Origin: a virus
Virus record (IMG/VR): IMGVR_UViG_3300022934_000004
DNA: 64,000 nt
Direction: 5' to 3' (one strand)
The notes under the pieces were generated by a model. That model had not been told where the DNA came from. It was given only the letters and a program-made list of their open reading frames with translations, and ran no database searches. The position numbers were made by a program, and so were the translations under genes. Shown piece by piece: positions 23,049 through 62,634 of this stretch (position 1 is the first letter of the stretch; every line of letters starts with the position of its first letter).

Positions 23049-23735
23049 ATGCATGCACGTCTCATATCCTATAGCCAACCCTCAGGTCGTATCCACGCAG
23101 GAGAACTTGGTTACGCGGGGCTTGATAACATCCAAGACCTCGTCGCCTATTGCGCCCGTGTCTCCAATCCACAAAACCAAGCTAACACCAAAACAACAAC
23201 AAAGCTACTTAAATATCTCATCAAGCACAAGCACTGGTCACCATTCGAAATGGCAAGCGCCTGCCTCGAAGTCGAAACCACAAGAGACATTGCCCGACAA
23301 TTCCTTCGACACCGCTCCTTTTCCTTTCAAGAGTTTTCTCAGCGGTATGCTGACATCCGCGATCTTAATGACAATTTTATTTTAAGAGAAGCACGATTAC
23401 AAGACACTAAAAATCGTCAAAATAGTATAAGTATTAATGATAAAGAATTACAAATGCAATGGGAAGGATACCAACAGAGTGTTATCAATCAAGCAAAAGC
23501 AGCATACGAATGGGCAATTGAAAACGGGATTGCCAAGGAACAAGCCAGGGCTGTTTTGCCGGAAGGAAACACAGTCTCTCGTCTTTATGTTAATGGCACC
23601 ATTCGTTCTTGGATACATTACATTGATTTGCGCACGGCAAATGGGACACAAATGGAACATATCGAATTGGCAAAAGAAATAGCAAAAGCAATATCTGCAA
23701 TTTATCCTAGTATAATGGAGATCTTAGATGGGTAA
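23049..23735 (+). CDS. thyX: Flavin-dependent thymidylate synthase
   Basis: HWSPFE, RHRSFSFQEFSQRY, EQARAVLP. Confidence 0.95.
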   Translation: MHARLISYSQPSGRIHAGELGYAGLDNIQDLVAYCARVSNPQNQANTKTTTKLLKYLIKHKHWSPFEMASACLEVETTRDIARQFLRHRSFSFQEFSQRYADIRDLNDNFILREARLQDTKNRQNSISINDKELQMQWEGYQQSVINQAKAAYEWAIENGIAKEQARAVLPEGNTVSRLYVNGTIRSWIHYIDLRTANGTQMEHIELAKEIAKAISAIYPSIMEILDG

Positions 23736-24024: not shown

Positions 24025-24513
24025 ATGAAACTATCAAGCTTACTTTCTGGTGCTGTTAATTGTGCTATCGTTATTTCAATTGCAACACTAGCATCCGCTC
24101 GCGCAGCTGATGTAGAAAAATTTGTTAAATCATTTTCTGATGATGACAGATATTGCATACAGCAGAATGTTTATTTTGAAGCACGCAATGAAAGCATGTT
24201 AGGTCAAGCTTCTGTAGCATGGGTCACTCTAAATAGATGGAAGTCTGAAAAATTTCCCAATGACGTATGTGATGTTGTATGGCAAAGAAAACAATTTAGC
24301 TGGACGCATGATGGTAAATCAGATCGTCCTAAAGAAATAGAAGCATGGGAACGTGCTGGTCGTGTTGTAAAAATGGTATTAGAAGATTATGCATGGGGAA
24401 GAGAAGATCCGACTGCTGGAGCAACTCACTATCATGCAACATATGTAAAACCATATTGGGTTGCATCGCTATCAGAAATTAAGAAAATTGGTACACATAT
24501 TTTCTATAAATAA
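24025..24513 (+). CDS. SleB/Hydrolase_2 cell-wall hydrolase with signal sequence
   Basis: YFEARNE, VAWVTLNR, QFSW, GATHYHA.YV.P.W, IG.HIFY. Confidence 0.9.
   Translation: MKLSSLLSGAVNCAIVISIATLASARAADVEKFVKSFSDDDRYCIQQNVYFEARNESMLGQASVAWVTLNRWKSEKFPNDVCDVVWQRKQFSWTHDGKSDRPKEIEAWERAGRVVKMVLEDYAWGREDPTAGATHYHATYVKPYWVASLSEIKKIGTHIFYK
24505..24512 (+). promoter_or_regulatory. T4-type late promoter
   Basis: TATAAATA just upstream of the 24519 ORF. Confidence 0.55.
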
Positions 24514-24518
24514 TTTAT

Positions 24519-24722
24519 ATGGAGTACTTATATGTTACACCCTGTATCGGTGTTTGTCGAATTGATAAAGAAACAAAGAAATGTCATGGGTGTGACAGAA
24601 CCATTGAGCAAATATCTCAGTGGATTAATTATTCACATGAGCAAAGAATGAAAATAATGAAGGAACTTGGTTATGGAAAACGGAGACTCAAGCGTAGGTC
24701 TAGGACAAACAATAACAATTGA
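24519..24722 (+). CDS. DUF1289-like Cys-rich small protein
   Basis: TPCIGVC...C.GC.RT.E.I..W. Confidence 0.75.
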   Translation: MEYLYVTPCIGVCRIDKETKKCHGCDRTIEQISQWINYSHEQRMKIMKELGYGKRRLKRRSRTNNNN

Positions 24723-25059
24723 TACGTCAGATTTTGAAGACTATAAAGATTGGGGACCTACTCTTACATTTGTTAGTGAAAGCACCGATTACAAGTTTAA
24801 TGAAGGTGCTCTTATTGAAGAATTTAAAAAATACATTGACTCAACTTATGATGCTCATTATGCTAAAGATAAATTTCAAGCTACAGAATTTATTATAGAT
24901 GGTGGACATGGTACTGGATTTTGTATGGGTAATGTATTAAAATATGCTCAGCGCTACGGTAAAAAAGGTACTGCCGCTGATGCAAGAAAGGATCTTTTGA
25001 AGGTATTACATTATGCCCTCATCCAACTCTACATACACGATACGGAAGTACAAGAATAG
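24673..25059 (+). CDS. DUF3310-like protein
   Basis: HY...GFCMGNVLKYAQRYGKK...DLLK..HY. Confidence 0.7.
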   Translation: MENGDSSVGLGQTITIDTSDFEDYKDWGPTLTFVSESTDYKFNEGALIEEFKKYIDSTYDAHYAKDKFQATEFIIDGGHGTGFCMGNVLKYAQRYGKKGTAADARKDLLKVLHYALIQLYIHDTEVQE

Positions 25060-25137: not shown

Positions 25138-25166
25138 TTTACAATCCTTGGGATATGTGGTTAAAT
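25138..25166 (+). promoter_or_regulatory. Putative promoter of the tmRNA precursor
   Basis: TTTACA-17-TTAAAT with TGTGG extension. Confidence 0.5.
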
Positions 25167-25171
25167 AAACA

Positions 25172-25470
25172 AGTAGATGTTAGAGGGTATTCAGGACCGC
25201 GGGGCGGTACCGCGCAGCTCCACCATAAACACTTGGAGAATGAAATGAGTGATATAGTTACATATTTGTCATTGAGACTTGTACAGTACGGATTGGTAAT
25301 TGTACTATTTGGAAGTTTATTAGAAGTGTTTTTGATGGGGCTGAAATAGGATCGACTGGTATTTGAGTCTACGAAAATCAAATGCAAACGATAACTTTGC
25401 ACCATCTGGTTACGCTCTAGCAGCATAACACAGGGGGTTGGCCACTTACCTAGCAACAGAAAAGTGGTGA
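25172..25470 (+). ncRNA. ssrA: Circularly permuted two-piece tmRNA (alphaproteobacterial type); acceptor piece ~25172-25225, intervening segment 25226-25336, coding piece 25337-~25470; tag ANDNFAPSGYALAA*
   Basis: T-arm CGCGG-GGCGGTA-CCGCG followed by CAGCTCC-ACCA (25198-25225) lies upstream of the 5' strand GGGGCTG (25337), pairing with G3.U70; resume codon GCA at 25384, stop at 25426-25428; outer ends approximate. Confidence 0.93.
25245..25349 (+). CDS. Putative 34-aa hydrophobic peptide encoded in the tmRNA intervening segment
   Basis: GGAG RBS at 25235-25238, ATG at 25245; MSDIVTYLSLRLVQYGLVIVLFGSLLEVFLMGLK. Confidence 0.4.
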   Translation: MSDIVTYLSLRLVQYGLVIVLFGSLLEVFLMGLK

Positions 25471-25499
25471 ATTCGCACAGAAATAGTAAAGGAAGAAAA

Positions 25500-25880
25500 A
25501 TGAAAATTGCAGCATTAGCCGCAGTATCGGCAATTACGTTAGCTGCTTGCGCAGCAGAAGAAGCAGAAGCAGCTGACATCGGTGTACTAGGACAAACGTT
25601 GTCTATTGGAGCTACAGTAGATACAAACTATGAAACCGGCGTCGAAGAATGGTCAATGGAATTTGAACCACACGCTGGTTGGAAAGCATGGGGAACTGAT
25701 TTTAAAGTATCTAGTACTTTTGATGTTTTAGAGCTAAATAGTGGCGACGACATCTTTGAAGGATTAGATTTTGAAGTTGGTTATCAGCTTTTTGATGGAC
25801 TCCGTGCTTATGGGGAAGTTAGCACTGATGCAGATTTAGAGTTTGGTAACACCACTGTAGGGGTTGCATTCTCATTCTAA
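25500..25880 (+). CDS. Small outer-membrane beta-barrel/porin-like protein
   Basis: Ala-rich signal peptide, alternating beta-strand pattern, C-terminal VGVAFSF (BAM signal). Confidence 0.7.
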   Translation: MKIAALAAVSAITLAACAAEEAEAADIGVLGQTLSIGATVDTNYETGVEEWSMEFEPHAGWKAWGTDFKVSSTFDVLELNSGDDIFEGLDFEVGYQLFDGLRAYGEVSTDADLEFGNTTVGVAFSF

Positions 25881-25946
25881 TATAAATATTAGTATCGGGT
25901 CGTTCCGTAATGAACGCGCAGGGGGCCACGGTTAGCTCCCTTTTTT
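25881..25946 (+). ncRNA. Late promoter plus a two-hairpin element ending in a U-tract (terminator or small RNA)
   Basis: TATAAATA at 25881; CGTTC/GAACG and GGGGG/CTCCC stems; TTTTTT. Confidence 0.45.
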
Positions 25947-44059: not shown

Positions 44060-46288
44060 ATGTTAAAAATAGTTCCAAACAATTCAGAAGTTAATACCCG
44101 TCAACTTCTGTCTCAGACTAAATTTTATGAAGGGTACTCTCGTTGGAGTGAAGAATTAAATCGTTATGAAACTTGGGAAGAAGCTGTGACTCGTGTCATG
44201 GATATGCATAGAGAGTATTATTCAGAAAAAATGTCACCGGAACTAGAACAACTTATAGATGAAGCAGAGTCCTTATATAAACTACAATACGCTTTAGGTG
44301 CTCAGAGAGCGCTCCAGTTTGGCGGTGAACAGCTCAAGAAGCATCAAATGCGGATGTACAATTGCACGTCTAGTTACGCAGATAGAGCAGAATTTTTTGG
44401 TGAATTGTTTTACATCCTCTTGTGTGGTGCTGGTGCTGGATTTTCTGTTCAAAAGCATCATGTAGATAAAATGCCAGATATTACAGAACGTAAAAAACAG
44501 GCAAAGGGTTTTGTTGTTGAGGATTCAATTGAAGGTTGGGCTGATTCTTTATCAGTTCTTATGTCTTCTTATTTTGTTGGCGGTGGAACTCATCCAGATT
44601 TTGAAGGACGTAAAATTTATTTTGACTTACAAAATGTAAGACCGAAAGGCGCAAAGATTTCAGGTGGATTCAAAGCCCCTGGACCAGAACCACTTCGTCG
44701 TGCTCTCGATAAAATTGAACATATGTTACAAGGTGTTGTTTTATCTGGTCGTAAAAGGCTTAAGCCAATTGAAGTATATGATATCGCAATGCACGCCGCA
44801 GACGCAGTTTTAGCAGGTGGTGTACGTAGGTCTGCTACTATTTGCTTATTTTCACCAGACGATGAGGAGATGATGAATGCAAAAACAGGAAATTGGTTCA
44901 ACGATAACCCTCAACGGGGCAGAAGCAATAATTCAGCTGTTATCGTCAGATCCGAAATTACTAAAGAAGATTTTAAAAAAATCATGGAACCAATCAAACA
45001 ATTTGGAGAACCAGGATTTTACTTTGTCGAAGACAGAGATTTCACGACTAATCCGTGTGTTGAGATTGGTATGTATCCGCAAATTGATGGAGAATCAGGT
45101 TGGCAAGGATGTAACTTAACTGAAATCAACGGTGGGAAATGTACAACTGAAAAAGAATTTTATAAAGCATGTCGTGCTGCTTCAATTATGGGTACACTTC
45201 AAGCAGGATACACTGATTTTAAATATATAGGGGAAATTTCCAAAAAGATCTATGAAAGAGAAGCACTATTAGGTGTTTCAATTACAGGTTGGATGAATAA
45301 TCCAGATGTTTTATTAAATGAAACTATTCAAGAAAAGGGTGCTGAAATTGTCAAACAAGTCAACCGAGAAGTTGCAGGACTTATTGGAATCAATCCAGCG
45401 GCTAGAACAACGTGTGTCAAGCCATCAGGAAACGCTTCGGTTTTATTGCAAACTGCTAGTGGTATTCACGCTGAGCATTCCCCTCGTTATTTACGCCATA
45501 TACAACTAAATAAGGAGACTGAAGTTGCTCAGCTTATTGCTTCTGAAAACCCTTACATGGTTGAGGAGTCGGTATGGTCTAGCAATAACACTGATTATTG
45601 TATTGCTTTTCCTGTTATTTCCCCTCAAAACTCTCTCTATAGAGAAGACCTGTATGGAACCGAATTGCTCGAAAAAGTCAAGCTCGTTCAATCCAGCTGG
45701 GTTGAAAGTGGTACCAATAAAGAGCTGTGTGCTGATGAAAGAATCAGGCACAATGTGTCAAACACCGTTACAGTGATGCCACATATGTGGTCACAAATTG
45801 AAGATTATGTATATGAAAATCGTAATTATTTTGCAGGTATTAGTTTCTTAGCTGGTTCCGGTGATAAAGATTTTGCTCAAGCTCCTATGAGTGAAGTCAT
45901 GACTGAAGATCAGATTGTTGATAAATACGGTAAAGCTGCATTGTTTGCATCTGGTCTGATTGTCGATACACGTAAATCAGGATTTAGAGATCTTTGGGAT
46001 GCTACCTTTATAGCACAGCAACCTGAAGAATATAGAGGAGAAGTAAGCGACTTGAATAAAGAATGGATCCGCCGCTTTAATAAGTTTGCTGATAACTATT
46101 TTATGGGTGATACAAAGGAAACTGAGTATTGTCTAAAGGATGTTTTCCTTCTTCATAAATGGACTAAGATTCAACAGAATTATACTGCAGTGGATTTTGT
46201 AACACAACTAACAGAAAAAAGATTTACAGATATCGATACAATGGGTGCAATGGCGTGTCATGGTGGAGCGTGCGAAATTACTTTCTAG
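44060..46288 (+). CDS. nrdJ: Class II (adenosylcobalamin-dependent) ribonucleotide reductase, monomeric type
   Basis: YNC, GGVRRSA, TNPCVEI, CNLTE, TCVKPSG, C-terminal CHGGACEI; no beta-subunit gene nearby; ATG 44060 follows an AAGGA RBS. Confidence 0.85.
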   Translation: MLKIVPNNSEVNTRQLLSQTKFYEGYSRWSEELNRYETWEEAVTRVMDMHREYYSEKMSPELEQLIDEAESLYKLQYALGAQRALQFGGEQLKKHQMRMYNCTSSYADRAEFFGELFYILLCGAGAGFSVQKHHVDKMPDITERKKQAKGFVVEDSIEGWADSLSVLMSSYFVGGGTHPDFEGRKIYFDLQNVRPKGAKISGGFKAPGPEPLRRALDKIEHMLQGVVLSGRKRLKPIEVYDIAMHAADAVLAGGVRRSATICLFSPDDEEMMNAKTGNWFNDNPQRGRSNNSAVIVRSEITKEDFKKIMEPIKQFGEPGFYFVEDRDFTTNPCVEIGMYPQIDGESGWQGCNLTEINGGKCTTEKEFYKACRAASIMGTLQAGYTDFKYIGEISKKIYEREALLGVSITGWMNNPDVLLNETIQEKGAEIVKQVNREVAGLIGINPAARTTCVKPSGNASVLLQTASGIHAEHSPRYLRHIQLNKETEVAQLIASENPYMVEESVWSSNNTDYCIAFPVISPQNSLYREDLYGTELLEKVKLVQSSWVESGTNKELCADERIRHNVSNTVTVMPHMWSQIEDYVYENRNYFAGISFLAGSGDKDFAQAPMSEVMTEDQIVDKYGKAALFASGLIVDTRKSGFRDLWDATFIAQQPEEYRGEVSDLNKEWIRRFNKFADNYFMGDTKETEYCLKDVFLLHKWTKIQQNYTAVDFVTQLTEKRFTDIDTMGAMACHGGACEITF

Positions 46289-61277: not shown

Positions 61278-61678
61278 TGGAATTCACTTACTCAGACGAT
61301 TGCTTCTCAGACCTTCATAAAGATGTTTATGGGTTTCGTCCTCGTGGTATTATAATGGACGATTGGAATGATCGTACTCCTCGCCAAAAACAAGAGCTAT
61401 GGAATGCTCTTTGTGACCAGCTTGAGGAGAATACTGCTCGTGAAAAAAAGATGGAAGCAATGAAAGTTGATGAATTCAAAGAGCGTATTCATCAAGCTCA
61501 AACCTGGGGTGCCAGAGATTATTGGGACGCTCTTCGCTGGATCACCGGCTGTGAAACTTTTTATCACATTCAAGACGTTGAACACTATGTGTGGGAGCAA
61601 GGTATCTTGTTTACACAGTATGGTAAACAGCTTGTCGAAGATCTTGCCAAAGTGGTAGAATATAAAGAGTTTGCATAA
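61277..61678 (+). CDS. Early hypothetical protein
   Basis: SDLHKDVYGFRPR. Confidence 0.65.
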   Translation: MEFTYSDDCFSDLHKDVYGFRPRGIIMDDWNDRTPRQKQELWNALCDQLEENTAREKKMEAMKVDEFKERIHQAQTWGARDYWDALRWITGCETFYHIQDVEHYVWEQGILFTQYGKQLVEDLAKVVEYKEFA

Positions 61679-61881
61679 TGCATTGGGTCCTAGTATACAT
61701 CGTAATTTCTGGTCATTCAATTTATGCTGTTAATGCTATGGGCCCAAAAACTTATTTTGCAACTATTAATGATTGCTTTTTTGCTCGAGAAAGATTGTCA
61801 GTGACAGTAGGTGGAGATGTAGAAGGTTACTTTCCTACTAATAGTCAAGCAATTTGCGTACAAGCCTCCGTGGTGGAATAG
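61678..61881 (+). CDS. Small signal-anchored two-Cys protein; stop codon lies inside tRNA-Leu
   Basis: MHWVLVYIVI...FATINDC...AICV. Confidence 0.55.
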   Translation: MHWVLVYIVISGHSIYAVNAMGPKTYFATINDCFFARERLSVTVGGDVEGYFPTNSQAICVQASVVE

Positions 61882-61948
61882 GTAGACACAAGAGACTTAA
61901 AATCTCTCGCCTAGAGGCGTACCGGTTCGAGTCCGGTCGGAGGTACCA
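61864..61948 (+). tRNA. tRNA-Leu(UAA)
   Basis: Cloverleaf with long variable arm; AGAGA-CTTAAAA-TCTCT; GGTTCGAGTCC; encoded CCA. Confidence 0.95.
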
Positions 61949-62034: not shown

Positions 62035-62580
62035 ATGAAAAATAATATGATTCTAACAATTAAATTTAAACGACATTTGGAAGTAAAAGACACTTTACTT
62101 GAAATGATAGCTAGTACTCCATCAGGAAATATTCTTGAAGGACAAGATAAAATTCAAAATACTGATTGGCATCACTCAGGTGGGCAGCCACAAGCATATT
62201 GGAATTTTGTAGGACCAATTATCTTTCAAGAGCTTGAACCTATTATTACTGAAAAGCTTTTACCTGATAGTTGGAGTATTAAAAATGCTTGGTTTCAACA
62301 ATATGAAACTAAAGATACTCATTCTTGGCACGTTCATCCAGGAAGTTTTTGGAATGCTGTATATTATATTGAATTACCAGAAGATGGGCCTTCTACTCAA
62401 ATGCAAATGCCTATCACACGTGAAGTAATAACACCACAAGTTACAGAAGGTGATATAATTATATTTCCTGCTGTATATCGTCATAGATCAGCACCAAATG
62501 AATCGAAGAAAAGAAAAACAATTATCTCATTTAATATCAATGCAAATGAGGTAGTATCTCGGAGTAGCGCAGGCTGGTAG
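62035..62580 (+). CDS. 2OG-Fe(II) oxygenase; stop codon lies inside tRNA-Pro
   Basis: HSWHVH, VYY, EGD..IFP...HRS, K.IISFN. Confidence 0.75.
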   Translation: MKNNMILTIKFKRHLEVKDTLLEMIASTPSGNILEGQDKIQNTDWHHSGGQPQAYWNFVGPIIFQELEPIITEKLLPDSWSIKNAWFQQYETKDTHSWHVHPGSFWNAVYYIELPEDGPSTQMQMPITREVITPQVTEGDIIIFPAVYRHRSAPNESKKRKTIISFNINANEVVSRSSAGW

Positions 62581-62634
62581 CGCATTTGGTTTGGGACCAA
62601 AGGGTCGGGAGTTCAAATCTCTCCTCCGAGACCA
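62558..62634 (+). tRNA. tRNA-Pro(UGG)
   Basis: CTCGGAG/CTCCGAG acceptor stem; TTTGG-TTTGGGA-CCAAA; GTTCAAATC; encoded CCA. Confidence 0.92.

Follow-up and report, generated by a model that had tools for sequence, protein, structure and literature searches.

We consider it likely that the hairpin loop of the intervening segment (IVS) of a phage two-piece tmRNA gene serves as a slot for a small protein gene, whose borrowed stop codon is best read as compaction. The gene in question lies in a stretch of viral DNA of 64,000 nucleotides (IMG/VR record IMGVR_UViG_3300022934_000004), referred to here as the window, in which a hydrophobic peptide of 34 residues is encoded between the two pieces of a permuted tmRNA. 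The features of the locus are as follows.

25138–25166, + strand: candidate sigma-70-type tmRNA promoter (TTTACA, 17-nt spacer, TTAAAT), read from sequence; score 9/12
25173–25225, + strand: tmRNA acceptor piece (helix 2 5' strand, T arm, 3' acceptor strand, CCA), from the RF04321 and RF01849 alignments
25226–25336, + strand: IVS, 111 nt, lost in maturation; bounded in the Rfam alignment by the CCA and by the GGGG that starts the coding piece
25227–25234, + strand: IVS closing stem, 5' arm AAACACUU (the AAACACTT of the inverted repeat)
25235–25238, + strand: Shine–Dalgarno (SD) sequence GGAG, 6 nt before the ATG at 25245
25245–25349, + strand: 34-codon ORF (MSDIVTYLSLRLVQYGLVIVLFGSLLEVFLMGLK) for a hydrophobic single-helix peptide; stop TAG at 25347–25349
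25324–25331, + strand: IVS closing stem, 3' arm AAGUGUUU (the AAGTGTTT of the inverted repeat), which also codes for part of E-V-F
25337–25472, + strand: tmRNA coding piece, starting GGGGCUG, from the Rfam alignments and the sequence
25384–25428, + strand: tmRNA tag frame ANDNFAPSGYALAA, then TAA, from the Rfam alignment to the conserved GCAAACGAUAAC...GCAGCAUAA

A first-pass annotation of the locus, made from the letters alone, had already given the IVS, the inverted repeat, the GGAG, the 34-codon ORF and its TAG, and every one of these coordinates is correct on the sequence. The surrounding gene is identified by Rfam as a permuted alpha-type tmRNA gene at 25173–25472 on the + strand, with scores of 87.2 bits for RF04321 (cut-off 47) and 72.1 bits for RF01849 (cut-off 50). 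ARAGORN misses it – its matches in the window are limited to three tRNAs at 61.8–62.6 kb – so that annotation by ARAGORN alone would overlook the gene. The acceptor piece ends with the CCA at 25223–25225, and both its T arm and the acceptor stem are recovered in the predicted precursor fold; in the latter, GGGGCUG (25337–25343) pairs with CAGCUCC (25216–25222), with G3 opposite U. The tag frame possesses the resume codon GCA, an end of the ...ALAA type and a stop, the tags of relatives being ANDNFAPS(N/E)YALAA and similar. Helix 2 (UCUAC, 25366–25370) is separated from the resume GCA at 25384 by only about 13 nt, an interval that is some 45 nt longer in relatives such as L120, where it normally harbours pseudoknot 1 (PK1), and that is short also in L256; judging by this spacing, the window tmRNA may lack PK1.

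The IVS itself is closed by a stem of 8 bp, in which 25227–25234 pairs with 25324–25331, both in folds of the IVS alone and in those of the precursor; in the predicted precursor fold it is stacked on the acceptor stem. The pairs of this stem are kept in nearly all of six aligned relatives, and the length of the IVS is 111–112 nt in the seven distinct IVSs of the peptide family found in the survey described below. Conserved RNA structure within the ORF was also considered and rejected, as its consensus energy is weak and only one of 34 pairs covaries; the closing stem alone stands. By the tmRNA model, cleavage by RNase P would take place at 25336/25337.

The window has a GC content of 32–37%, and all of the genes examined are on the + strand. 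The helicase and ThyX genes place the phage among the marine T4-like myophages; its closest T4-like isolate, judged by ThyX, is the OM43 phage Melnitz, at 62% identity. The thyX gene itself occupies 23049–23735. The region 5' of the tmRNA (24025–25059) encodes a cell-wall hydrolase (PF07486), a DUF1289 protein and a DUF3310 protein, while the gene directly 3' (25500–25941) encodes a protein of 126 aa with a lipoprotein-like signal start (…TLAAC) and is followed by a terminator-like hairpin at 25920–25941. As there is no terminator between the tmRNA and this gene, the two may be co-transcribed. A glutamine riboswitch, such as adjoins the tmRNA of Melnitz (PMC9004378), was considered near the tmRNA, and none is present in the window at the Rfam gathering score.

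Transcription of the tmRNA gene probably starts from the TTTACA-17-TTAAAT element at 25138–25166, a promoter proposed from its sequence and from its position: its -10 hexamer ends 78 nt before the ATG of the peptide ORF, matching the position in relatives. In nine of the 17 distinct relatives, a near-consensus TTGACA-17-TATAAA element (11/12) has its -10 end 86–90 nt before the ATG, and Melnitz possesses this promoter too; that of the window is weaker (9/12), and it was left unlisted by the automated promoter scan owing to the A2 rule of that scan.

The peptide ORF ends 13 nt inside the mature coding piece, on the TAG at 25347–25349, which forms part of GAAAUAGGAUCGAC in the D-loop-like region of the tRNA-like domain, and the first 13 nt of that piece are at the same time the last four codons and the stop of the peptide gene. 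Among shuffled IVSs, 2% yield an ATG ORF of equal coverage, which makes the ORF of a single sequence mildly unlikely; that it stands above chance is established by comparative evidence and not by the lone sequence. Patterns back-translated from the peptide collected a family of 31 loci, seven of them viral and 24 metagenomic, which contain 17 distinct coding sequences (CDS) for 16 distinct peptides. In the 15 distinct forms borne in an IVS, the ATG is found 19–20 nt after the CCA of the permuted tmRNA, and the ORF comprises 34 codons and ends on the TAG of the tmRNA at +13. Only L261 deviates: its acceptor strand, GGGGUAG, gives an ORF of 32 codons with its TAG at +7. The stop inside the mature tmRNA, which the first-pass annotation had seen in the window, is thus shared by all 15 (15/15).

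The same annotation had suggested comparing related loci for conservation of the ORF, of its ribosome-binding site and of its codons, and it is borne out on each of these points across the 17 distinct CDS. Most relatives retain the GGAG, which is replaced by GGGA in L112 and by AGAG in L256, and over codons 2–26, the part of the ORF that lies outside the closing stem, the summed pN/pS is 0.28 in the frame of the ORF versus 0.76 and 1.96 in the two alternative frames. For these codons, pairwise dN/dS ranges from 0.06 to 0.35 for pairs with unsaturated dS. On this comparison of sequences, the IVS ORF is a true gene: it is conserved, and purifying selection acts on it. Its product, with a GRAVY of 1.41 and a hydrophobic window of transmembrane grade at residues 12–34, is predicted by AlphaFold2 to form one helix (residues 2–33, pLDDT 94), and is probably inserted in the membrane. 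Neither the peptide nor its relatives belong to any family in Pfam, PHROGs or the ESM Atlas. Against Pfam, the peptide gives nothing at E ≤ 1, and hence has no homology to ArfA; a tblastn search of 50,697 phage records returned no credible match, so that the peptide is absent from the cultured phages of that set.

A profile of the family, run against 1.8 billion representative proteins, retrieved 11 relatives. Six more distant relatives were placed on contigs, and all are ordinary small genes with their own stops; each of the six sits in a tight co-directional phage operon with overlapping start and stop codons, and there is no tmRNA around them in the 1.2 kb fetched per side. Closer to the window peptide is a copy of 31 aa at L273 1501–1596 (and L274 1218–1313), which likewise has its own stop (directly after …LMR) and lies outside any IVS. 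Directly downstream of this copy comes a TTGACA-17-TATAAA promoter that belongs to another tmRNA gene, and the ORF begun in the IVS of that gene is a different one. In its preserved GAAGTGCTTATGA, the copy seems to keep a remnant of the 3' arm and linker of an IVS.

Most free-standing homologues possess an E-V/Y-hydrophobic motif resembling the C-terminal E-V-F of the window peptide, and this motif therefore belongs to the peptide rather than being an accident of the stem. The existence of free-standing homologues also means that the peptide family is not dependent on residence in a tmRNA. One of the distant ones, P0009 (35 aa; L459 1201–1308), stops on a D-loop TAG, having run 22 nt into a tRNA-Leu(taa) gene (L459 1287–1372) at the head of a four-tRNA cluster; as a homologue that ends in an RNase P product, it could hint at a real link with processing.

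The use of the IVS as a coding slot extends well beyond this family. In three pattern-based scans, viral contigs yielded 298 tmRNA loci, whose IVSs comprise 231 distinct sequences; 117 of these are 80–400 nt long, and in 65 of the 117 an ATG ORF fills at least 70% of the IVS. The mean GC is 0.33 in the ORF-filled IVSs versus 0.42 in the rest. The 65 ORFs form 31 sequence families, and pN/pS is 0.04–0.32 in every family that has differing members of the same length. An SD core precedes 43 of the 65, compared with 7% of control windows.

The three reading frames are used about equally across the 31 families (11, 8 and 12). Frame-1 families stop inside the IVS, most of them on the UGA of the conserved UGAU linker, which provides the stop in 12 of the 31 families and is located one nucleotide before the RNase P site. 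Among the 19 families in the other two frames, eight carry a stop of their own, a few nucleotides short of the IVS end, and the remaining 11 of the 31 stop in the mature tmRNA after running 13–42 nt into it. Within the Melnitz-type family, members that run into the tmRNA are found together with members that have their own stops.

The spacers of bacterial tmRNA genes are different. In the 107 alphaproteobacterial genes among the matches listed, the IVS measures 30 nt in the median and never exceeds 83 nt, and an ORF of this kind is present in none of them. Nor is there an ORF in the IVSs of roseophage DSS3_MAL1 (L246) and Rhodobacter phage RcXuper (L248), which measure 98 and 109 nt, have a GC content of 56–57% and may be structured RNAs; not every phage tmRNA, then, has a coding IVS. 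It is, nonetheless, general in phage tmRNA genes and absent from the sampled bacterial ones. No description of coding tmRNA IVSs was found in the literature searched – the 2025 tmRNA database paper notes as contents of IVSs only a tRNA gene and a repetitive element (PMC11915505) – and the class to which the locus belongs, protein genes lying within the spacer that phage two-piece tmRNAs lose, is apparently unpublished.

A stop codon borrowed from a stable RNA is also not peculiar to the tmRNA of the window. An ordinary gene for a 2OG-Fe(II) oxygenase (62035–62580; 181 aa; Pfam PF13759, 1.6e-13) ends on a TAG at 62578–62580 that lies 23 nt inside tRNA-Pro(tgg) (62558–62634), in its D-loop (GGCTGGTAGCGC). 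Similarly, an ORF of 67 aa at 61678–61881, which is without a family match, has its TAG (61879–61881) in the D-loop of tRNA-Leu(taa) (61864–61948). The overlap is seen at both tRNAs of the window that have an ORF directly upstream, and D-loop-borrowed stops look like a compaction habit of this phage.

Transcripts that combine a functional RNA with a small protein are well known, as in SgrS/SgrT, RNAIII/delta-haemolysin and SR1/SR1P. In SgrS, RNAIII and SR1, the coding part stays in the working RNA; in the window, unlike in these dual-function RNAs, it lies mostly in the discarded piece of a stable-RNA precursor. Another parallel is the 23S rRNA IVS of Coxiella burnetii that encodes S23p which, as described in PMC4990558, is like that of the window closed by a stem, bears an ORF and is excised from the precursor of a stable RNA. 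According to that source, S23p is probably not made in vivo and its IVS is viewed as a selfish element; by comparison with what is described there, the phage tmRNA IVS ORFs differ in carrying SD sequences, in showing purifying selection and in having a phage tmRNA as their host RNA.

Permuted tmRNA genes of Alphaproteobacteria, for which PMC9004378 cites Keiler, Shapiro and Williams (2000), have the order of acceptor piece, IVS and coding piece (RF01849/RF04321) in common with the window. Their IVSs, too, have a closing stem with A-rich and U-rich flanks, and many end in UGAU before GGGG, like the window type; among the matches listed, however, the alphaproteobacterial IVS is a bare hairpin, whereas that of the window is coding.

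Among cultured phages, the pelagimyophages, and Melnitz in particular, offer the nearest comparison (PMC9004378). Melnitz has a two-piece alpha-type tmRNA with an ANDNF...ALAA-type tag, the same as in the window, and a sigma-70-type promoter directly upstream of it, as in the window, where the promoter is weaker. The window tmRNA is shorter than the Melnitz type between helix 2 and the tag frame. The Melnitz IVS shares the flanks of the window IVS (TAAACACTTGGAGAA ... AAGTGTTTATGAT), and here too an ORF fills it (MFKWLSKTRLVV...); this ORF bears no relation to the window peptide and extends into the mature tmRNA by about 42 nt. This ORF, MFKWLSKTRLVVITRDYF..., stands behind a GGAG at L251 377–519 (MZ577097.1, about 46076–46218), and its relatives in other contigs have their own stops. 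The GenBank record of Melnitz annotates the tmRNA only, leaving the IVS ORF unannotated, and the paper on its tmRNA makes no mention of the IVS, with no occurrence of the word 'intervening' (PMC9004378).

How, then, is the position of the stop codon to be explained? The first-pass annotation had taken it as the mark of an ArfA-like sensor, in which the RNase P cut makes the ORF non-stop, the tagged product is degraded and the output reports on processing or trans-translation. The cut at 25336/25337 would indeed split codon 31 and separate the ORF from its stop, every IVS-borne member has this layout without variation, and the distant homologue in L459 also ends inside a tRNA. There is, moreover, a precedent in Escherichia coli, where arfA mRNA is made non-stop by RNase III and becomes a substrate of trans-translation, so that ArfA is regulated in a like manner (PMC3989581); the likeness lies in an endonuclease cut within the ORF, upstream of its stop, that would give a non-stop message. 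Unlike in arfA, the nuclease would be RNase P; there is no sequence relation, the peptide being without a Pfam match; and the non-stop layout is conserved neither among the homologues, which stand free and have their own stops, nor among other IVS ORFs. The TAG is already conserved as a tmRNA feature, invariant in these loci, and its presence accordingly needs no selection through the ORF. The evenness of the frames (11/8/12) in the 31 families, of which only 11 stop in the mature tmRNA, the mixture of run-in and own-stop members in the Melnitz-type family, and the same stop-in-D-loop layout in an oxygenase gene of the window all speak against a sensor as well. We regard it as unlikely, and on this point depart from the first-pass annotation, whose interpretation as a whole is partly supported.

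It is also conceivable, if rather improbable, that what matters is the passage of the ribosome and not the peptide, the ORF acting in cis as a leader that, for instance, opens the closing and acceptor stems and so times RNase P cleavage and 3' trimming. Such a role would suit an ORF that spans the 3' arm of the closing stem and the 5' acceptor strand, and a slot that is filled in other phages by unrelated ORFs; it would not lead one to expect purifying selection on the amino-acid sequence or the retention of the peptide family elsewhere as a free-standing gene. An ORF is lacking in many phage tmRNA genes and in each of the bacterial ones sampled (107 among the matches listed), which means that processing needs none. 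Purifying selection bears equally on the idea that the ORF is untranslated and conserved as an RNA element for tmRNA processing, to which we attach very little probability: the IVS does fold better than its shuffles (z -2.5), but substitutions follow the codon pattern of one frame only, covariation in the interior helices is confined to one of 34 pairs with a consensus energy of only -10.4 kcal/mol, and homologous peptides are encoded outside any tmRNA. A further proposal builds on the likeness to a type I toxin that the first-pass annotation had noted, and sees in the product a membrane peptide held in check by an antisense RNA or by the tmRNA. The description of the peptide stands, as it is small and hydrophobic with a single predicted helix, whereas an antisense partner is not indicated by the promoter scan: the consensus scan found four promoter-like sites in the region against 5.1 expected, not above chance, and the sole one on the minus strand is about 280 nt downstream of the ORF. 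The peptide has no match in Pfam or PHROGs, and its free-standing homologues are found in co-directional overlapping operons, unlike the usual toxin/antisense layout, making a toxin highly improbable.

The reading that we prefer, a coding slot combined with compaction, would operate as follows. The peptide gene would be transcribed from the tmRNA promoter, with about 70 nt between the likely start of the transcript and the start codon, and the position of that promoter upstream of the tmRNA would make the gene the first cistron of the precursor. With the stop inside the mature coding piece, the peptide can be completed only on RNA uncut by RNase P – a point made in the first-pass annotation that follows from the geometry, given the cleavage site suggested by the tmRNA model. 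In the predicted precursor fold, the 5' side of the ribosome-binding region is in the closing stem, so that initiation would be hindered on the folded precursor. Ribosomes would thus most likely load during transcription, before the closing and acceptor stems can form, translate across the 3' arm of the stem and on into the coding piece for 13 nt, and terminate at the UAG. Only after termination would the tRNA-like domain fold and be cut, the fully folded precursor presumably being the form recognised by RNase P. The ORF in this frame would simply run to the first stop, which happens to be supplied by the conserved UAG of the tmRNA.

A selected role for the stop-in-tmRNA layout, invariant as it is in the IVS copies of the family, is still conceivable. 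One form that it might take, though we hold the odds to be low, is a coupling of IVS-gene translation to tmRNA maturation, with the ribosome masking the 5' acceptor strand and delaying RNase P. If this were true, ribosomes on the IVS after the cut would stall at its 3' end and be rescued by tmRNA, and the finished peptide would report on how the supply of precursor, the activity of RNase P and the capacity for trans-translation are balanced during infection; genes of the window phage that end in tRNA D-loops would be subject to the same logic.

The spacer of two-piece tmRNAs has so far been treated as disposable, while in the window and in many marine phages it is a slot for small protein genes; holding a protein gene, it would make the tmRNA precursor a messenger RNA as well. 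For annotation, this means that IVS genes – the Melnitz ORF being an example – are missed. For the study of phage evolution, the slot shows phages placing and exchanging small genes between conserved RNA flanks. For RNA biology, it implies that a ribosome would have to cross the acceptor strand of the ribosome-rescue RNA before RNase P frees it, and the order of translation and processing thereby becomes a testable question, for which Melnitz and its OM43 host provide a cultured system.
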